Source of the DNA: Prevotella sp.
Lineage (GTDB): Bacteria; Bacteroidota; Bacteroidia; Bacteroidales; Bacteroidaceae
DNA length: 64,000 nt
Assembly (NCBI GenBank): GCA_045597685.1
Contig: JAZLKO010000008.1
Span: 3,097-67,096, forward strand
Direction: 5' to 3'
This document shows, one piece after another, positions 1 to 19,396 of this stretch. Position 1 is the stretch's first letter. Each line of letters opens with the position of its first letter. A program made the translations under genes and the position numbers. The notes below the pieces were generated by a model. The model was not told the origin of the DNA. It searched no databases and saw nothing but the letters and a program-made list of their open reading frames with translations.

Positions 1-1094
1 TTTTTGTTTTGTTCTTGTTCATCCTTATCGACGTAGGTCTGTCCGTCATCCTCATATTTCTTCAAGAGACTAAGGGTAGGGTAGTGGTAGTTTTCAAGAT
101 CTTTCTTCGGGTCGAAAGCTTCCATTTGCTTGTTGCCTACCTGAACAAGAGTTGCACCATGGGCTTTCTCATAGTCTTGACCAACTTCAATCTGCATTTG
201 GGTATTTGTCACTGGTTGTGGGTCACCGGTTGTGGATTGTGGGTTGTGGGTTGAGGGTTGAGGATTATCGTTATCGTCAGAGTCAGTGTTATCGTTATTA
301 ATTATTGGTTGTTCCCATTCGATAATATTAGTTGTGGATTGTGGGTCGTCGGTTGTGGATTGTTGGTTATCGTTATCGTTATCGTCATCGTTATCGAATG
401 TGTCAGGGGTGTTTTCTACGACTTCAAAAGGTATGCGGTTGAACAGGTGTGATGGATTAAGTATGGTGCGAATGATGTTTATCGTGTTGATGCTGAGATA
501 AATTAGATATGCTATAAGTGTAAGTACGAGGATTCCTACCAGCCCTGGTTCACCGATGATATTCTGAACATAATCCATGATGTATTCGCCATGGTCTCCA
601 CCTGGTGAGAATGGTGTGGATTCAAAGAATGGTGACAAAAATTTTGCAAATGCAACAGAACTCCAGAGCATGAAAATCATCAATGTGAAGAAACTTTTTA
701 TCAGATTGATTTTATTGACTTTCATCAGTCGTAAGGATAATAAGATGATGAATACTGGGATGCAGAAAGCACCTATCCCGAAATATTTACCAATGAAATA
801 GTGGGCTGTATATGCTCCGAGTGACCCACAATAGTTTTGGAATACGTGTTTGGTGTTTTCCAAATCACCATCCTGCATATTGATGAGTGTGCTCTGGTCG
901 GCAAAACCAGTGGTAAAAAACGATATGAACGAAAGAATCATTATGATTCCGATGCAAAGCAACAGTATTCCTGTAAAGAAATTCAATTTCTCATTCTGGA
1001 AAAGACTTGTGCAACCTATTGCATCTAAAAAAGTGCTATTTGGCTTATTGCTCTTTCTTCGGCTTGGAGTTGATGAAGTTTTTCTTGATTTCAT
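1..1094 (-). CDS. ftsK: FtsK/SpoIIIE DNA translocase, N-terminal membrane domain and linker; runs off the left edge (not in the ORF track)
   Basis: Manual translation from ATG 1094: MKSRKTSSTP..., several hydrophobic segments, GGDHG, then AFDPKKDLENYHYPTLSLLKKY, typical of the Bacteroidetes FtsK linker/motor junction. Confidence 0.85.
   Translation of the reverse strand, partial: MKSRKTSSTPSRRKSNKPNSTFLDAIGCTSLFQNEKLNFFTGILLLCIGIIMILSFISFFTTGFADQSTLINMQDGDLENTKHVFQNYCGSLGAYTAHYFIGKYFGIGAFCIPVFIILLSLRLMKVNKINLIKSFFTLMIFMLWSSVAFAKFLSPFFESTPFSPGGDHGEYIMDYVQNIIGEPGLVGILVLTLIAYLIYLSINTINIIRTILNPSHLFNRIPFEVVENTPDTFDNDDDNDNDNQQSTTDDPQSTTNIIEWEQPIINNDNTDSDDNDNPQPSTHNPQSTTGDPQPVTNTQMQIEVGQDYEKAHGATLVQVGNKQMEAFDPKKDLENYHYPTLSLLKKYEDDGQTYVDKDEQEQNK
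213..396. repeat. Hexamer (GTTATC) and heptamer (GGGTTGT/GGATTGT) tandem repeats inside the ftsK linker
   Basis: Two blocks, 213-296 and 331-396, encoding DNDDDNDNDNQQSTTDDPQSTT and DNTDSDDNDNPQPSTHNPQSTT. Confidence 0.9.
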
Positions 1095-1863: not shown

Positions 1864-4031
1864 ACACGTTCAACCACCCGAACTCCTTTTATTTTCTTGA
1901 GATTCTTTATTAGCGACTCTATCTTAGTTGTGTCATGGACTGATACTACCAAAGTGCCACTGAATAATCCGTTGTCGCTGTTGATGTTGATTGAGCGAAG
2001 CGACATTTTTTCTTCAACAACAATGTTTCGAGATATGTTGTTCACGATTCCAATATCATCCTTACCAATAATTTTCAGTGTGACATCGTAGAGCGAAGTA
2101 CCTTTTCCATTCCATCTGGCCTTTAATATTCTATAGCCAAAACGCTGTTTCATGTCAGTAGCATTTGGGCAGTTTTCACGATGGATTTTTATACCACCAT
2201 TGGCTGTGACGAAGGCAAAAATCTTGTCGCCGAATACTGGATTGCAGCATTTTGCCAACTGGTAATCAATGCCTTTGAGATTGTGGTCAATAATCAGTTC
2301 GTCGCTATTGTTGGATGAGTCAGTATCGTGAGTCTTGCTCAAATCGAAGGTATCAGCACTCACCTTGTCGTTGCTTTGTAAAGTGTTATCTCTTAGAGCG
2401 ATGTATTTGTCAATTACCTCGCTGACTTCAAGGTTCTTGTCGGCAATGTCTTTATAGAATGAAGTGACGCGTTTATAACCAAGTTTTTTGATGAGTTTCA
2501 TCATCAGCGATTCTTCGATGTCAATCTTATTGTTTTTGAATCGCCTTTCAATCATTTCTTTTGCAAGTGCGCTTTGCTTTACTTCCTGTTCCTTGAGTGC
2601 AAGGCGTATCTTGCTTTTTGCATGACTGCACTTGACAATCTTAAGCCATTCCAAACGTGGTGATTGCACACTTGATGTGATGATTTCCACCTCGTCTCCG
2701 CTACGCAGTTCTTGGCGAATGCTCACTACTTTACCATTTATTTTTGCACCTGTGCATTGGTTGCCTATTCGTGAATGAATGCGATAGGCAAAGTCCAATA
2801 TGGTTGAACCTTTAGGAAACTTAAGCAAGTCGCCTTTCGGAGTGAAAGCATAGACTTCTTCCTCGTCGAGTTCGATGCGGAACTGATCCATCAGCTGCAT
2901 GTCATCGTTGCTTTCAAGTGCTGCGCGTATGCCTGACAACCAATCTTCTATGCCATGACCACTCGTCTTGACACCTTTGTAGCGCCAGTGTGCAGCCAGT
3001 CCATGCTCTGCAATGTCGTCCATCCGTTCTGTACGGATTTGTACCTCGACCCATTTGTTGTCGGGTCCAAGCACTGTTATGTGTAATGACTCATAGCCAT
3101 TGGTTTTCGGGACGGATAACCAGTCGCGCAGACGGTTTGGGTTTGGCTGGTACATATCGGTAACGATGGAATAAGCTTGCCAGCACAGCATTTTTTCGGC
3201 TTTTTCTGGTGAATCAATTATGATGCGTATGGCAAAAATATCATAAACCCCTTCAAATTCACATTTTTGCTTTTTCATCTTCTGCCAGATGCTGTGTATG
3301 CTCTTTGTGCGGGCTTTGATATGGAATTTCATTCCTGCTTCTTCCAGTTTTGCATTAATAGGCTTTACAAACTGCTGTATGTACTGATTGCGCACTTCTT
3401 CGGTGTCGTGGAGTTTTTCCTGAATATGGAAATAAGGTTTTGGTTCAAGATATTTTAGGCTTAGGTCTTCCAACTCCTTCTTCAATGAATACAATCCAAG
3501 TTTATGTGCAAGAGGTGCGTAGAGGAATGATGCTTCACGTGCAACCATTGAACGGGCTTCGATGTTCTCAGTATCGCCAATACTGCGCATGAGGTTTACG
3601 CGGTCGGCGATCATGATGAGTATCACACGCATGTCGGCGGCAAAACTAATCATCAGATTACGGAAATTCTCTGTTTCCACTGATGTGTTTTTTTGGTATA
3701 GCTGGCTGATTTTATTCAGTCCATGTACGATATGAGCAACATCATCGCCAAAGTCGGTTTTTATATTGTCTTCTCCGTTGGAATCATTCTTGCATAAAGA
3801 GTAGAGTAATAGTCCAAGCAAGGCTTCGCGCATTACGCCTATTTCGGTAGCAAAGAGTTTGATAGTCTGCAAATTCATGATTATAGGGTCGAATCCGAAT
3901 GCGTCAGTGGCTGGCTCGTTCTGCATAAAATTATGAATATATTTCTTTAGCAGATTGTCAGTGTCTTGGTTATCACTCTTAATGTATGGTGCTACCTCTG
4001 AAATCAGGGTTTCTAATGCTTGAAGTTTCAT
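1860..4031 (-). CDS. relA: RelA/SpoT (p)ppGpp synthetase with TGS and ACT domains
   Basis: ARTKSIHSIWQKM, YDIFAIRII, PKTNGYESLH, EVQIRT, AAHWRYK, FTPKGD (TGS), C-terminal ACT. Confidence 0.93.
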   Translation of the reverse strand: MKLQALETLISEVAPYIKSDNQDTDNLLKKYIHNFMQNEPATDAFGFDPIIMNLQTIKLFATEIGVMREALLGLLLYSLCKNDSNGEDNIKTDFGDDVAHIVHGLNKISQLYQKNTSVETENFRNLMISFAADMRVILIMIADRVNLMRSIGDTENIEARSMVAREASFLYAPLAHKLGLYSLKKELEDLSLKYLEPKPYFHIQEKLHDTEEVRNQYIQQFVKPINAKLEEAGMKFHIKARTKSIHSIWQKMKKQKCEFEGVYDIFAIRIIIDSPEKAEKMLCWQAYSIVTDMYQPNPNRLRDWLSVPKTNGYESLHITVLGPDNKWVEVQIRTERMDDIAEHGLAAHWRYKGVKTSGHGIEDWLSGIRAALESNDDMQLMDQFRIELDEEEVYAFTPKGDLLKFPKGSTILDFAYRIHSRIGNQCTGAKINGKVVSIRQELRSGDEVEIITSSVQSPRLEWLKIVKCSHAKSKIRLALKEQEVKQSALAKEMIERRFKNNKIDIEESLMMKLIKKLGYKRVTSFYKDIADKNLEVSEVIDKYIALRDNTLQSNDKVSADTFDLSKTHDTDSSNNSDELIIDHNLKGIDYQLAKCCNPVFGDKIFAFVTANGGIKIHRENCPNATDMKQRFGYRILKARWNGKGTSLYDVTLKIIGKDDIGIVNNISRNIVVEEKMSLRSININSDNGLFSGTLVVSVHDTTKIESLIKNLKKIKGVRVVERV

Positions 4032-4035
4032 GATT

Positions 4036-4241
4036 GGTTGTATGTTATTGGTTGTATGTTATTGGTTGTGGGTTGTGGGTTTTCGTTGTCGTCAGTATGA
4101 GGAGTTAAGGAGTTAAAGAAGTTAAGGAGTTAAGACATTACCTGGTTCCTGAGCCTATCGAAGGAGAACCTTGAACTTTGAACCATTTTTTATGGTTATG
4201 GTTATGGTTATCGTTATCGTAGCGCAGCGTATCGTTATCGT
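4036..4241. repeat. Chain of different short tandem repeats in an operon spacer
   Basis: TTGGTTGTATGTTA x2, GGGTTGT, GGAGTTAA x4, REP-like CCTGAGCCTATCGAAGG (4148-4164), GAACCTT/GAACTTT, (G/C)GTTAT hexamers. Confidence 0.85.
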
Positions 4242-9679: not shown

Positions 9680-9860
9680 ATTCAAGTTTCTCAAGTTCTT
9701 CAAACTCTCGAAACTCAAGGAGTTAAGGAGTTTCAATTGTGGAGTTAAGAAGTTAAGGAGTTAAGGAGTTAAGACATGAGCCTTGCGTCAGCAGTCAGAG
9801 TCTGTAGTCAGAGTCAGTAGTCAGAGTCAATAGTTATCGTTATCGTTATCGTTATCGTCC
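9680..9860. repeat. Chain of short tandem repeats between co-oriented genes
   Basis: CAAGTTTCT/AAACTCTCG block, GGAGTTAA x~6, GACATGAGCCTTG, AGTCAG(T/A) repeats, GTTATC x4. Confidence 0.88.
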
Positions 9861-9870
9861 GCAGCCAGTG

Positions 9871-12471: not shown

Positions 12472-12599
12472 AAGTAAGAAAAAACTCTGTTTTTTAATTG
12501 ATAATTGATAATTGACAATTGATAATTATGTTTTTTTAATAGAAAATCCCAAAAACCATCAGTCATCAATCGTCAACCATCAATCTTTTTATATTTTTG
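12469..12599. promoter_or_regulatory. Divergent promoter pair with the heptamer cassette (reverse orientation of 1118-1248)
   Basis: -7 boxes at 12469-12476 (-) and 12592-12599 (+); (AATTGAT/AATTGAC)n - core - (CATCAAT)-like repeats. Confidence 0.7.
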
Positions 12600-14229: not shown

Positions 14230-16221
14230 TTACTTTTTAATATTGATGCCTAACTCTTTGGCAAGTAGGTTTCGGCATTCCATACATCTCTTCAATTCAG
14301 CCATAAGTTCTTTCGCCTTCTCGGGATGTGCTTTCAACTCTGCCTGTAACTCTTTTATGCGCGTCTGGTACTTATCCATCTTGAAGTCCATTATCAGATG
14401 GATAACATGATTCCGAATGTCGTTGTTGTCTTCTGTGTATTTCAGCAATCTGCTTAGATGATAGCGTTCAATTGACATTTGTGTAGCAAGACTGTTTATC
14501 TGCACATCTGGATGATTAGTGAAGAATGATTCAGCCTTGAAATCAGCATCAGCCGAGTGCTCAACAGCCAATTTAAGTATAGTGTTGTAAAGTTCATTAC
14601 TGAAACACATGTCGTCAGCATCAAGGTCATATTCTATGTACTGGGCAACATTAATATTGATTATCCCCCCATCATCGTTCTCAATACCTTCAAAGATTAT
14701 GGTCTCTCCATGCCTGATAATTTCCTGCACAAGCAACGATTCTGGTGTATCGGAAATGCTGGTGGGTTTTAGGTTGTGGGTTGTGGGTTGTGGGTTGAGG
14801 GTTGAGGGTTGTGGGTTATGGGTTGTAGGTTGAGGGTTTTTGTTTTCGTTTTCGTTATTGTTATATATCGCTGCTTCACGTTCACGTTGTTTGCGTTTTT
14901 CCTTTTCCTCCATGTCGGTGCTTATGAACTTGTTCATGGTATTGATAAGCACCTGCTCGCCGATGCCTGTTTGCGAAGAGCATTCATGAATGTATGTGGC
15001 TTTTTTGATAGGATCTGGAATCCCGGAAATGCTTTTCACAATGCTGCTTATCGCCTCGGAGCGTTTTATCGGGTCGGTAACATTGTTGAGAAGGACTTTT
15101 ATCTTGAACTCAATAAAATCGGTTTGGTTCTCGTTGATGTAGTTGTTGTATTCCTCAACGGTGTGGTTGCGTGCAAAACTGTCCGGGTCTTCATTCTCGG
15201 GAAGTAATACAATCTTAACATTCATGCCTTCTTCCAGTAGCATATCGGTACCACGCAATGCTGCATGTATGCCAGCCTCATCACCATCGTATAAGAGGGT
15301 TATGTTCGACGTGAAACGATGGAGCAGTCGGATTTGTGCATTTGTAAGTGCAGTACCAGAATTGGCAACCACATTTTCAATTCCACACTGGTGCATGGAG
15401 ATGACATCAGTGTAGCCTTCAACCATATAGACCTTATCTTGTTTTACGATAGCTTTTTTTGCTTGAAAGATGCCATAAAGTTCATTGCTTTTACTATAGA
15501 TTTCCGATTCAGGGGAGTTGACGTATTTTTGGCTTACTCCCTTTGTTCTGGAATCAAGCACTCTTCCTCCAAAAGCACATACTTTTCCGCTTATTGATAG
15601 CCAAGGGAATATCACACGGTCGTAGTAGCGGTCGCGCAATTTGCCATTCTCATTCTTATAGCAAAGTCCTGTGGCGATGATGTATTTTTCCTGAAAACCT
15701 TTTTTCAGTGCAGCCTGAGCCAAAGCATCATTACCTTTAAGAGAATATCCGAGTTGGAATTTTTTGATAATATCGTCACGGAAACCGCGGCTGCGGAAAT
15801 ATTGCAGACCGATAGTTTTTCCATCAATATCATTATACATAATGTCCTGAAAGTAGTTCATTGCCCATTCGTTGACGATAAACATACTTTCGCGGTCGGT
15901 AGCTTCTTGTTTTTCCTCAGCTGTAAGTTCTTTTTCTACAATTTCAATATTGTATTTCTTTGCCAACCACCGCAAGGCTTCAGGATAGGTCATCTGTTCG
16001 TGCTCCATGAGAAAGCCGATGGTATTTCCACCTTTTCCACATGAAAAACAATGACAATAGCCTTTGGCTGGGGAAACTATAAAGGAAGGTGTCTTTTCGT
16101 TATGGAAAGGGCACAATCCTTTATAATTTACTCCAGACTTCTTGAGCGTAACAAACTCACCAACAACATCAACGATGTTGGCTACATTCATTATGCGGTC
16201 GATGGTTTGTCTGTCAATCAT
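14230..16221 (-). CDS. dnaG: DNA primase
   Basis: CPFHNEKTPSF zinc finger, KYVNSPES, VEGYTDV, YDGDEAG toprim, DPD. Confidence 0.96.
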   Translation of the reverse strand: MIDRQTIDRIMNVANIVDVVGEFVTLKKSGVNYKGLCPFHNEKTPSFIVSPAKGYCHCFSCGKGGNTIGFLMEHEQMTYPEALRWLAKKYNIEIVEKELTAEEKQEATDRESMFIVNEWAMNYFQDIMYNDIDGKTIGLQYFRSRGFRDDIIKKFQLGYSLKGNDALAQAALKKGFQEKYIIATGLCYKNENGKLRDRYYDRVIFPWLSISGKVCAFGGRVLDSRTKGVSQKYVNSPESEIYSKSNELYGIFQAKKAIVKQDKVYMVEGYTDVISMHQCGIENVVANSGTALTNAQIRLLHRFTSNITLLYDGDEAGIHAALRGTDMLLEEGMNVKIVLLPENEDPDSFARNHTVEEYNNYINENQTDFIEFKIKVLLNNVTDPIKRSEAISSIVKSISGIPDPIKKATYIHECSSQTGIGEQVLINTMNKFISTDMEEKEKRKQREREAAIYNNNENENKNPQPTTHNPQPSTLNPQPTTHNLKPTSISDTPESLLVQEIIRHGETIIFEGIENDDGGIININVAQYIEYDLDADDMCFSNELYNTILKLAVEHSADADFKAESFFTNHPDVQINSLATQMSIERYHLSRLLKYTEDNNDIRNHVIHLIMDFKMDKYQTRIKELQAELKAHPEKAKELMAELKRCMECRNLLAKELGINIKK
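14764..14858. repeat. Nine heptamers plus GTTTTC hexamers, in frame inside dnaG
   Basis: 14771-14833 = 9 x (A/G)GGTT(G/A)(T/A) = 63 nt, encoding NPQPTTH NPQPSTL NPQPTTH. Confidence 0.92.
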
Positions 16222-16246
16222 TCAGTTTTTATCGGTATTCTACGAT

Positions 16247-16972
16247 TTAATGGTTGTGGGTTGTAGGTTGTGGGTTTTTGTTTTCGTTTTCGTTTTCGTC
16301 TTTCTGTTGCCTTTTTGAATTCTGATTCATTAAATCTTCATATTCTTCAGAATCCCGACGGATGGTAATGGTGCCTTTTACTATGCTGGCTCCTTTTATG
16401 CCAGCAGCTCTTACACGGCGCAACACGGCTGATGCTTTTTCCTGTGACACATAATTGCCCATTCTGCAAATCCAACGAGGGGAGTAGAAATGCGTATAGA
16501 TAGGCTCATTAGGAAATATTCGTTTGGCTTTTCTGCCAATTGCTTCAGCCTGTTGCCTGTCTGAACGTGTGTTACCACCTGCAAACAATTGTATTCTGTA
16601 GCCTTGCACTTTCTGGGCATCTGCCATAATCTTTTTTCTGCCAGTCACAGCGGTCATTAGCGAATCGCGCTTATACACAAATTTCCGACGAATATTCAAT
16701 TCAGGCTTTTTAGGCTTTTCCATAACGGAATCTTTCCTGACGCGGACTTTGACCGTTACCGCTTCATCATGTTTGACCGTGTCACGCTTGACAACCTCAG
16801 GTTTGCGGTTGTCAATAACATAATTGAGCGAAGGGTCTTGATGAATAGTAATTTGTCCCTTCCCGTTTTCAGCCTTCTTTAAATGCCAAATGAAACTTTG
16901 TGCGTTGGCAGAACTTATAAGCAAAACGTTGTCTGCTATCAGTAAGGCAAGTATTACGAATAAGTGCTTCAT
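16247..16972 (-). CDS. SPOR domain protein with a repeat-derived C-terminal tail
   Basis: Signal peptide; GYRIQLFAGGN...PRWICRMGNY SPOR motif; ends ENENENKNPQPTTHNH. Confidence 0.85.
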   Translation of the reverse strand: MKHLFVILALLIADNVLLISSANAQSFIWHLKKAENGKGQITIHQDPSLNYVIDNRKPEVVKRDTVKHDEAVTVKVRVRKDSVMEKPKKPELNIRRKFVYKRDSLMTAVTGRKKIMADAQKVQGYRIQLFAGGNTRSDRQQAEAIGRKAKRIFPNEPIYTHFYSPRWICRMGNYVSQEKASAVLRRVRAAGIKGASIVKGTITIRRDSEEYEDLMNQNSKRQQKDENENENKNPQPTTHNH

Positions 16973-19262: not shown

Positions 19263-19396
19263 CAAAGGTAAGAAAAAGGTTGAGGGTTGAGGGTTGAGGG
19301 TTGAGGGTTTTTATGATTTTTTTAATAAAAAAAACTTAATTGTCAATCGCCAATTATCAATTATCAATTAAAAAACAAAGTTTTTTCATACCTTTG
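19263..19396. promoter_or_regulatory. Divergent promoter pair with the heptamer cassette
   Basis: -7 boxes at 19263-19270 (-) and 19389-19396 (+); (GGGTTGA)x4 - core - (CAATTAT)n. Confidence 0.7.

Follow-up and report, generated by a model that had tools for sequence, protein, structure and literature searches.

We analyzed a 64,000-nucleotide (nt) stretch of the draft genome of an uncultured Prevotella (GenBank assembly GCA_045597685.1, contig JAZLKO010000008.1, positions 3,097 to 67,096; here called the window) in which the DNA primase gene dnaG and the adjacent gene for a SPOR-domain protein carry the same junction of hexamer and heptamer repeats in the same reading frame. We consider it likely that a microsatellite family private to this lineage fills disordered segments of these proteins and evolves there in in-frame steps, i.e., that the repeats are tolerated filler and not an on/off switch. 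The features on which this account is based are listed below, with positions given as those of the window.

14230 to 16221, minus strand: dnaG, the open reading frame (ORF) of the DNA primase (663 amino acids [aa]; Pfam Zn_ribbon_DnaG, DNAG_N, Toprim, and DnaB_bind)
16247 to 16972, minus strand: ORF of the SPOR-domain protein (241 aa; Pfam SPOR at residues 123 to 195)
14755 to 14859, minus strand: disordered interdomain linker of DnaG (residues 455 to 489), almost wholly encoded by repeats, as predicted by AlphaFold2 and alignments
14764 to 14840, minus strand: heptamer array of dnaG, 11 imperfect units (sense, AACCCAC type; six variants) encoding NPQPTTH and NPQPSTL repeats
14841 to 14864, minus strand: hexamer array of dnaG (sense, AACAAT AACGAA AACGAA AACAAA) encoding NNNENENK, directly 5' of the heptamers
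14814 to 14856, minus strand: 43-nt junction module of dnaG, common to the SPOR gene with 2 synonymous differences
16252 to 16294, minus strand: 43-nt junction module of the SPOR gene, encoding the final residues NENENKNPQPTTHNH; the TAA stop codon (16247 to 16249) adjoins it
16252 to 16304, minus strand: C-terminal tail of the SPOR protein, composed of the hexamers GACGAA AACGAA AACGAA AACAAA and approximately 3.6 heptamer units

The sequence GGGTTTTTGTTTTCGTTTTCGTT (23 nt) occurs exactly at 14834 to 14856 and at 16272 to 16294, with no other match in the window at up to three mismatches. Given that 0.01 matches were expected by chance, chance identity of the 23-mer was rejected for the window. 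The 2.32-Mb draft genome contains exactly these two exact copies, but a small repeat vocabulary makes partial matches common genome-wide (22 matches at up to three mismatches). Both lie in minus-strand ORFs and are read in the same frame as NENENKNPQPTTHN, which bears out the claim of an earlier, sequence-only reading that dnaG and the SPOR gene share 23 identical nucleotides and the peptide that these encode. The similarity extends to 43 nt (14814 to 14856 and 16252 to 16294), and the two differences (CCT/CCA and CAT/CAC) are synonymous.

That reading was right about the identity, the frame, and the shared peptide, but not about the number of units, which it gave as exactly nine heptamers (63 nt) and regarded as frame preserving. 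In register, the dnaG array consists of GGGTTTT, AGGTTGT, GGGTTGT (twice), GGGTTGA (twice), GGGTTGT, GGGTTAT, GGGTTGT, AGGTTGA, and GGGTTTT, i.e., 11 units or 77 nt. Tandem Repeats Finder likewise reported 11.0 copies with 84% matches, and nine units are obtained solely if no more than one mismatch to GGGTTGT is permitted. The array is thus imperfect: its units fall into six variants, and no more than three identical units adjoin one another. In the SPOR tail, the same program delimited a period-7 segment (16252 to 16276) and a period-6 segment (16274 to 16304). The peptides predicted from the ORFs are NPQPTTHNPQPSTLNPQPTTHNLK in DnaG and NPQPTTHNH at the C terminus of the SPOR protein, and judging from the ORFs, both tracts are probably translated.

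Because 77 is not a multiple of three, it is the array plus its flanks that preserves the frame of dnaG. With three heptamers amounting to 21 nt, successive units are read in each of the three registers, which yields the seven-residue repeat NPQPTTH. When we simulated the gain or loss of one or two units, DnaG ended at 481 to 512 aa, in agreement with the earlier claim that a one-unit change would truncate the primase. The gain or loss of three units produced proteins of 670 or 656 aa with an intact C-terminal domain. A TAA triplet in the degenerate unit at 14771 to 14777 (plus strand, AGGTTTT; sense, AACCTAA) causes the products of a one-unit loss or a two-unit gain to stop inside the array (481 or 488 aa).

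The site at which the array lies in DnaG is one that appears to tolerate such steps. The gene dnaG is essential for replication, and the window copy is the sole full-length one found in the genome. It encodes all canonical domains (Pfam), with the zinc ribbon, Toprim-containing catalytic core, helical subdomain, and C-terminal domain of a DnaG-type primase, and these fall in two confidently modeled parts (residues 1 to 454 and 493 to 662). In the AlphaFold2 model, which was built on a 115-sequence alignment (mean predicted local distance difference test [pLDDT] score, 82), residues 455 to 489 alone had pLDDT scores below 50 and no secondary structure, while the neighbors of this segment, a long helix (residues 422 to 456) and the C-terminal domain (residues 493 to 662), were predicted with confidence. 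Since the low-scoring segment separates the core from the C-terminal domain, the repeat tract would constitute the linker that precedes the helicase-binding domain.

Orthologues of dnaG were found in 39 of 41 related genomes. All 24 aligned orthologues from related genomes were unconserved and variable in length at the linker position, which was the sole region of this kind. The window DnaG (663 aa) is nonetheless typical in length, the matched regions of orthologues spanning approximately 638 to 669 aa. We also asked, as the sequence-only reading had proposed, whether orthologues lacking the repeat family have the same peptide; NPQPTTH was absent from the orthologues of the 24 relatives and from 115 database proteins. 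The SPOR gene lies upstream, its stop codon separated from the dnaG start by 25 nt.

Short tandem repeats of period 6, 7, and 8 are abundant in this genome. The most frequent period is 7, with 407 arrays; 264 of these are intergenic, and another 61 are located at the 5' edges of ORFs (genes were called genome-wide as stop-to-stop ORFs, and the class of interior arrays includes some false positives). The family to which the dnaG array belongs, AACCYNN in the sense orientation, comprises 87 arrays of at least three units, 53 of them intergenic. In all 34 arrays that touch ORFs, the C-rich strand is the sense strand, a bias that is due in part to stop-to-stop ORF calling, since GGGTTGA contains TGA. 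The dnaG array is the longest of the family, and no other exceeds 6 units. Among GGGTTGT-like arrays, four units are the commonest size (22 of 47), which corresponds to four G-tracts. Three successive GGGTTGW units were matched 20 times in the window genome, whereas 38 of 40 relatives had no match; by this comparison, the GGGTTGW heptamer family appears to be private to the lineage.

Composites of hexamers and heptamers occur at ten or more places in the genome; hexamers precede heptamers in 10 cases, the reverse order does not occur, and every coding copy of the composite reads (D/E)N...NPQP. Two such composites, read as DNDDDNDNDNQQSTTDDPQSTT and DNTDSDDNDNPQPSTHNPQSTTGDPQPVT, lie in the linker of FtsK (window positions 213 to 396, within the N-terminal part of a minus-strand ORF at 3 to approximately 1095); their repeat units and order match those of dnaG and the SPOR gene. 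In a comparison of 12 junctions (66 pairs), 2 of 43 nt separated the dnaG junction from that of the SPOR gene (median of all pairs, 11), and these two junctions have two rare variants in common (AACAAA and AACCTAC). Two other junctions (contig C28, at approximately 26122; contig C96, at approximately 43721) are also 2 of 43 nt apart and have a common nonrepeat left flank (CTTCGCTACGATAACGATAACCCACAACCCA, read as ...RYDNDNPQP...). The sequences of this second pair suggest that a composite was copied between loci together with a unique part.

The use of the primase linker by heptamers is not confined to this genome. Among the 30 dnaG genes examined, period-7 linker arrays were present in the window and in at least three other Prevotella lineages, each with a different unit. 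The units in the other lineages are as follows.

AGGAGTC: 7.7 or 4.7 units, then an inverted CTGACTC array
CACCCCT: 9.3 units
CAATTCT: 5.1 perfect units

Two sets of strains in the AGGAGTC lineage differ by exactly 21 nt (7 residues). Among protein clusters at least 95% identical outside the linker, one lineage had linkers of 37, 44, and 51 aa and another had linkers of 44 and 37 aa, with a single one of 42 aa, while in a repeat-free lineage the linker was constant at 24 aa in 21 clusters. The expectation of the sequence-only reading that unit changes come in threes therefore holds in related lineages with comparable strains, where the steps are 21 nt or 7 aa. For a search for truncated alleles, we used the N-terminal 440 residues of the AGGAGTC-lineage DnaG as a query and retained the 120 best clusters (at least 94% identity). 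No truncated DnaG was present among these 120 clusters; all were 632 to 670 aa long, and none ended in or near the linker. A separate protein set likewise contained no truncation at the linker (0 of 115 clusters). The 120 best clusters comprised 51 distinct linkers in 12 length classes (19 to 54 aa), including a 40-, 47-, and 54-aa series of an SQESGxx repeat, and the apparently mosaic composition of some linkers suggests recombination. Quadruplex formation was considered as a general cause and rejected, because the linker heptamers AGGAGTC and CAATTCT of other lineages lack G3 tracts.

Two further observations concern dnaG in other lineages. In the linkers at L033:2833-2955 and L034:2833-2934, (AGGAGTC)n is followed approximately 40 nt later by inverted (CTGACTC)4, read as SQESGVG... 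and ...LLTPDSRLLSP; these inverted arrays form a potential hairpin inside the coding region. The dnaG of another Prevotella lineage (704 aa) has a second in-frame insert of approximately 41 residues in the N-terminal part of the catalytic core (L036:2074-2208), built of CAAGTTGA octamers, a REP-like piece encoding ...PNPSPKGEGS..., and ATCCCTC heptamers. A gene of the 23S_rRNA_IVP family lies directly upstream of this dnaG.

The closest DnaG in the database is 88% identical overall and is encoded on a Logan contig (L031) that retains the gene order of the window (MauE/DoxX, triose-phosphate isomerase, SPOR, dnaG, and pseudouridine synthase). At the DNA level, the dnaG of this relative aligns well with that of the window as far as the initial hexamers (AATAACGAAAACGA), so that the start of the hexamer run is common to both genes, and the alignment resumes from TTTCCGAT. 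Other hexamers, a 12-mer repeat, and unique sequence lie between the aligned parts, with no heptamers. Its SPOR gene has a different 3' tail (KPKEKKQTETAEGDN), again with no heptamers, and the tail and the spacer are not homologous to those of the window. Because both heptamer tracts are missing in the closest relative found, they were gained or replaced in one of the two lineages since their divergence. In L031, an inverted repeat of approximately 110 nt (CCCCAACCCTCCCCTTTCAAGGGAGAGAG ... CTCTCCCCTAAGGGGAGTTGGAGGGG) occupies the spacer that separates the SPOR gene from dnaG (3030 to 3135), compared with 25 nt of spacer in the window.

These data fit a scheme in which GGGTTGW heptamers (sense, AACCCWC) and A-rich GAWAAC hexamers would have come to occupy two sites that tolerate nearly any hydrophilic filler, i.e., the disordered DnaG linker between the core and the helicase-binding domain and the unconserved C-terminal tail of the SPOR protein. 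The C-rich strand presents almost no stop codons and encodes a disorder-friendly peptide rich in Pro, Gln, Thr, and Asn. Replication slippage and recombination between arrays would then alter the tracts. A change in dnaG would survive only if it preserves the frame, so that whole units would have to be gained or lost in multiples of three; gains or losses of one or two units would remove the C-terminal domain and would presumably be purged as lethal or severely harmful. The SPOR tail should be under weaker constraint, since its array directly abuts the stop codon. Since the dnaG and SPOR junctions lie 1.4 kb apart in neighboring genes of the same orientation, their near-identity is most likely due to gene conversion or template switching that copied sequence between the two arrays, as opposed to slippage in each independently.

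The sequence-only reading had also held that the repeat count is probably under selection. This is tenable insofar as selection most likely merely removes out-of-frame slips; nothing indicates that a particular count is maintained. Changes in 21-nt steps, with no truncated alleles in relatives, are the pattern expected from purifying selection on an essential gene. That the primase linker holds long arrays could mean that it is the most permissive site or that its variability in length is useful, the latter being of low probability.

The same reading had gone further and proposed that the dnaG tract could act as a contingency locus, i.e., a hypermutable heptamer switch that toggles full-length primase or yields a truncated form as bet-hedging. 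[quoted passage not shown] However, a tract with 84% matches, six variants, and runs of no more than three identical units argues against it, the gene concerned encodes the replicative primase, and the part that would be lost is the domain that docks on the helicase. Relatives' clusters truncated at the linker numbered 0 of 120 and 0 of 115, versus 65.6% of neuO genomes in the OFF state, and the presence of like tracts in FtsK and many other proteins of the genome fits tolerance better than a dedicated switch. We therefore regard a contingency locus at dnaG as very improbable. The in-frame shared junction, the truncation by one unit, and the steps of three survive from the earlier interpretation; the count of nine and the contingency locus do not. 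It is just as hard to credit that the repeat count or the identity between the two loci stems from misassembly of this metagenome-assembled genome. Although the draft consists of 117 contigs and assemblers can collapse short repeats, the arrays (77 and approximately 50 nt) are below ordinary read length and have unique flanks, both ORFs remain open through the arrays into conserved sequence, and similar tracts recur in many independent assemblies of other lineages.

Two other explanations assign the repeats a more active part. According to one, the in-frame array is kept because it permits quick seven-residue steps in linker length that tune the coupling of primase and helicase. At least four Prevotella lineages independently have heptamer arrays in this linker, these are among the longest seen (11, 9.3, and 7.7 units), and several length alleles coexist within one lineage. 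Yet lineages with short, constant, repeat-free linkers of 24 aa thrive, and linker sequence and length (19 to 54 aa) vary with no visible constraint, as would those of a neutral spacer; adaptive tuning is accordingly improbable, and we would give slightly less credence still to the broader idea that heptamer microsatellites preferentially land and expand in the Prevotella DnaG linker because fast seven-residue changes in length are useful there, so that the linker, supplied by the heptamers that each lineage possesses, would be a "tuning knob" for the coupling of primase and helicase. The other explanation, that copy and paste delivered the hexamer-then-heptamer composite to dnaG and the SPOR gene already complete, as a small dispersed element comparable to the in-frame palindromic elements of Rickettsia, is unlikely but deserves more weight. 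The order is fixed (hexamers 5' of heptamers, 10 versus 0), one reading frame is used in all coding copies, the dnaG and SPOR copies are 2 of 43 nt apart and share two rare variants, and heptamers are missing at both sites in the closest relative. A ready-made element is nevertheless at odds with the lack of a fixed length or fixed ends (2 to 11 units), of target-site duplications, and, in the dnaG copy, of a palindrome. Moreover, the dnaG hexamer run is older than the divergence from the closest relative, which means that the tract grew in place at least in part, and the GATAAC hexamer and ATAACCC heptamer overlap, so that one could arise from the other by slippage.

The reading that we prefer, namely, tolerated filler that changes in frame, also has to accommodate several points that weigh against it. 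The case for copying between the two loci is based on 1 of 66 pairs; a second pair shows the same degree of similarity, and the repeats draw on a small vocabulary. No second strain of the species was found: the window DnaG stands alone in its 90% cluster, and an exact scan of JGI metagenome contigs gave no match to the conserved 26-nt right flank. Some changes of length in relatives are not steps of 7 aa (e.g., the 42-aa allele among 44-aa alleles); this allele and the many unrelated linker types imply that recombination and other insertions or deletions also act. With 11 units, the dnaG array has about double the length of every other array in its family (at most 6 units), which simple neutral filling does not predict, and the long linker arrays elsewhere (7.7 and 9.3 units) hint at a pull toward expansion at the linker.

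If tolerated filler is the correct account, a lineage-private microsatellite can enter essential genes harmlessly, provided that it lands in disordered linkers or tails and in the strand orientation with almost no stop codons. Once it is in an essential gene, only three-unit (21-nt) changes survive. For annotation, this means that such low-complexity segments of Prevotella proteins are to be treated as real coding sequence and not as frameshift errors, and that strain differences of 7 residues in DnaG length are to be expected. That different heptamer families have repeatedly come to occupy the primase linker, in several lineages, is an observation of modest weight, for which we found no description in the literature searched; the search returned no paper on these Prevotella heptamer repeats and only a review on frameshifting.

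Repeat arrays also structure intergenic parts of the window. Divergent promoter regions of one layout occur at 1132 to 1221, 12495 to 12585 (reversed), and 19278 to 19370, comprising a -7 box (TAnnTTTG, of the Bacteroidetes type), (GGGTTGA)4 TTTT, an AT-rich core, (AATTRTC)3-4 AATTAAAAAAC, and another -7 box. With its four G3 tracts, the G-rich arm of these regions could in principle fold into a quadruplex. The spacers at 4032 to 4241 and 9737 to 9870 consist nearly entirely of stacked arrays (14-mers, GGTTGTG heptamers, GTTWTC hexamers, AGGAGTTA octamers, and 13-mers).

The systems with which the dnaG tract can be compared place it among known kinds of repeats. In bacterial DnaG, a linker that varies joins the catalytic core to the C-terminal helicase-binding domain. 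The window linker has the same position in the protein and is likewise predicted to be disordered; it differs in that several Prevotella linkers, this one included, are heptamer microsatellites with length polymorphism in units of 7 residues. Rickettsia palindromic elements are dispersed repeats of fixed length that form palindromes and are tolerated in frame within proteins. The arrays described here resemble them as repeats of a noncoding type that are accommodated in frame by unrelated housekeeping proteins where the structure permits. In contrast, the arrays of this genome are open-ended tandem repeats without defined ends, vary from 2 to 11 units, and have no inverted arm in the dnaG copy, whereas an inverted pair is present in the dnaG of another lineage.

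Heptanucleotide repeats of prokaryotes are exemplified by the G-rich GGGAATC of Xanthomonas and GGGGA(T/C)T of Nostoc, in which arrays of four units are preferred (Rehm et al. 2015, PMC4692102); an excess of heptamers among bacterial repeats is attributed to a 2007 survey as cited in that paper. The window genome has the same characteristics, with a dispersed excess of period 7, mostly intergenic and near gene borders. Its heptamers share with those of Xanthomonas and Nostoc the tandem 7-nt unit, the lineage-specific family spread over the genome, the predominantly intergenic location near gene starts and ends, and four units as the commonest size. The tracts described here differ in being intragenic and in frame, while underrepresentation in coding regions has been reported (PMC4692102), and in the 11 units of the dnaG array.

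The closest functional parallel is neuO, a dispensable prophage gene with 3 to 53 near-perfect heptamers at its 5' end, for which 65.6% of 64 complete genomes have counts that are not multiples of three and are OFF (PMC13001214). Both genes have coding heptamers, one count class modulo three that gives the full protein, and a seven-residue peptide repeat. The 11 units of dnaG, by contrast, are imperfect and sit midway through an essential gene, and the relatives showed no OFF allele. Of the traits of a phase-variable locus, dnaG thus has the frame-shifting intragenic unit but neither the near-perfect long tract nor the dispensable, environment-facing gene; the arithmetic is equal and the outcome opposite because dnaG is essential. 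The dnaG tract is real, but it is not a new kind of system and very probably not a contingency locus. It belongs to a known kind, that of translated heptamer arrays, and its particular point is the repeated use of the linker of an essential primase.

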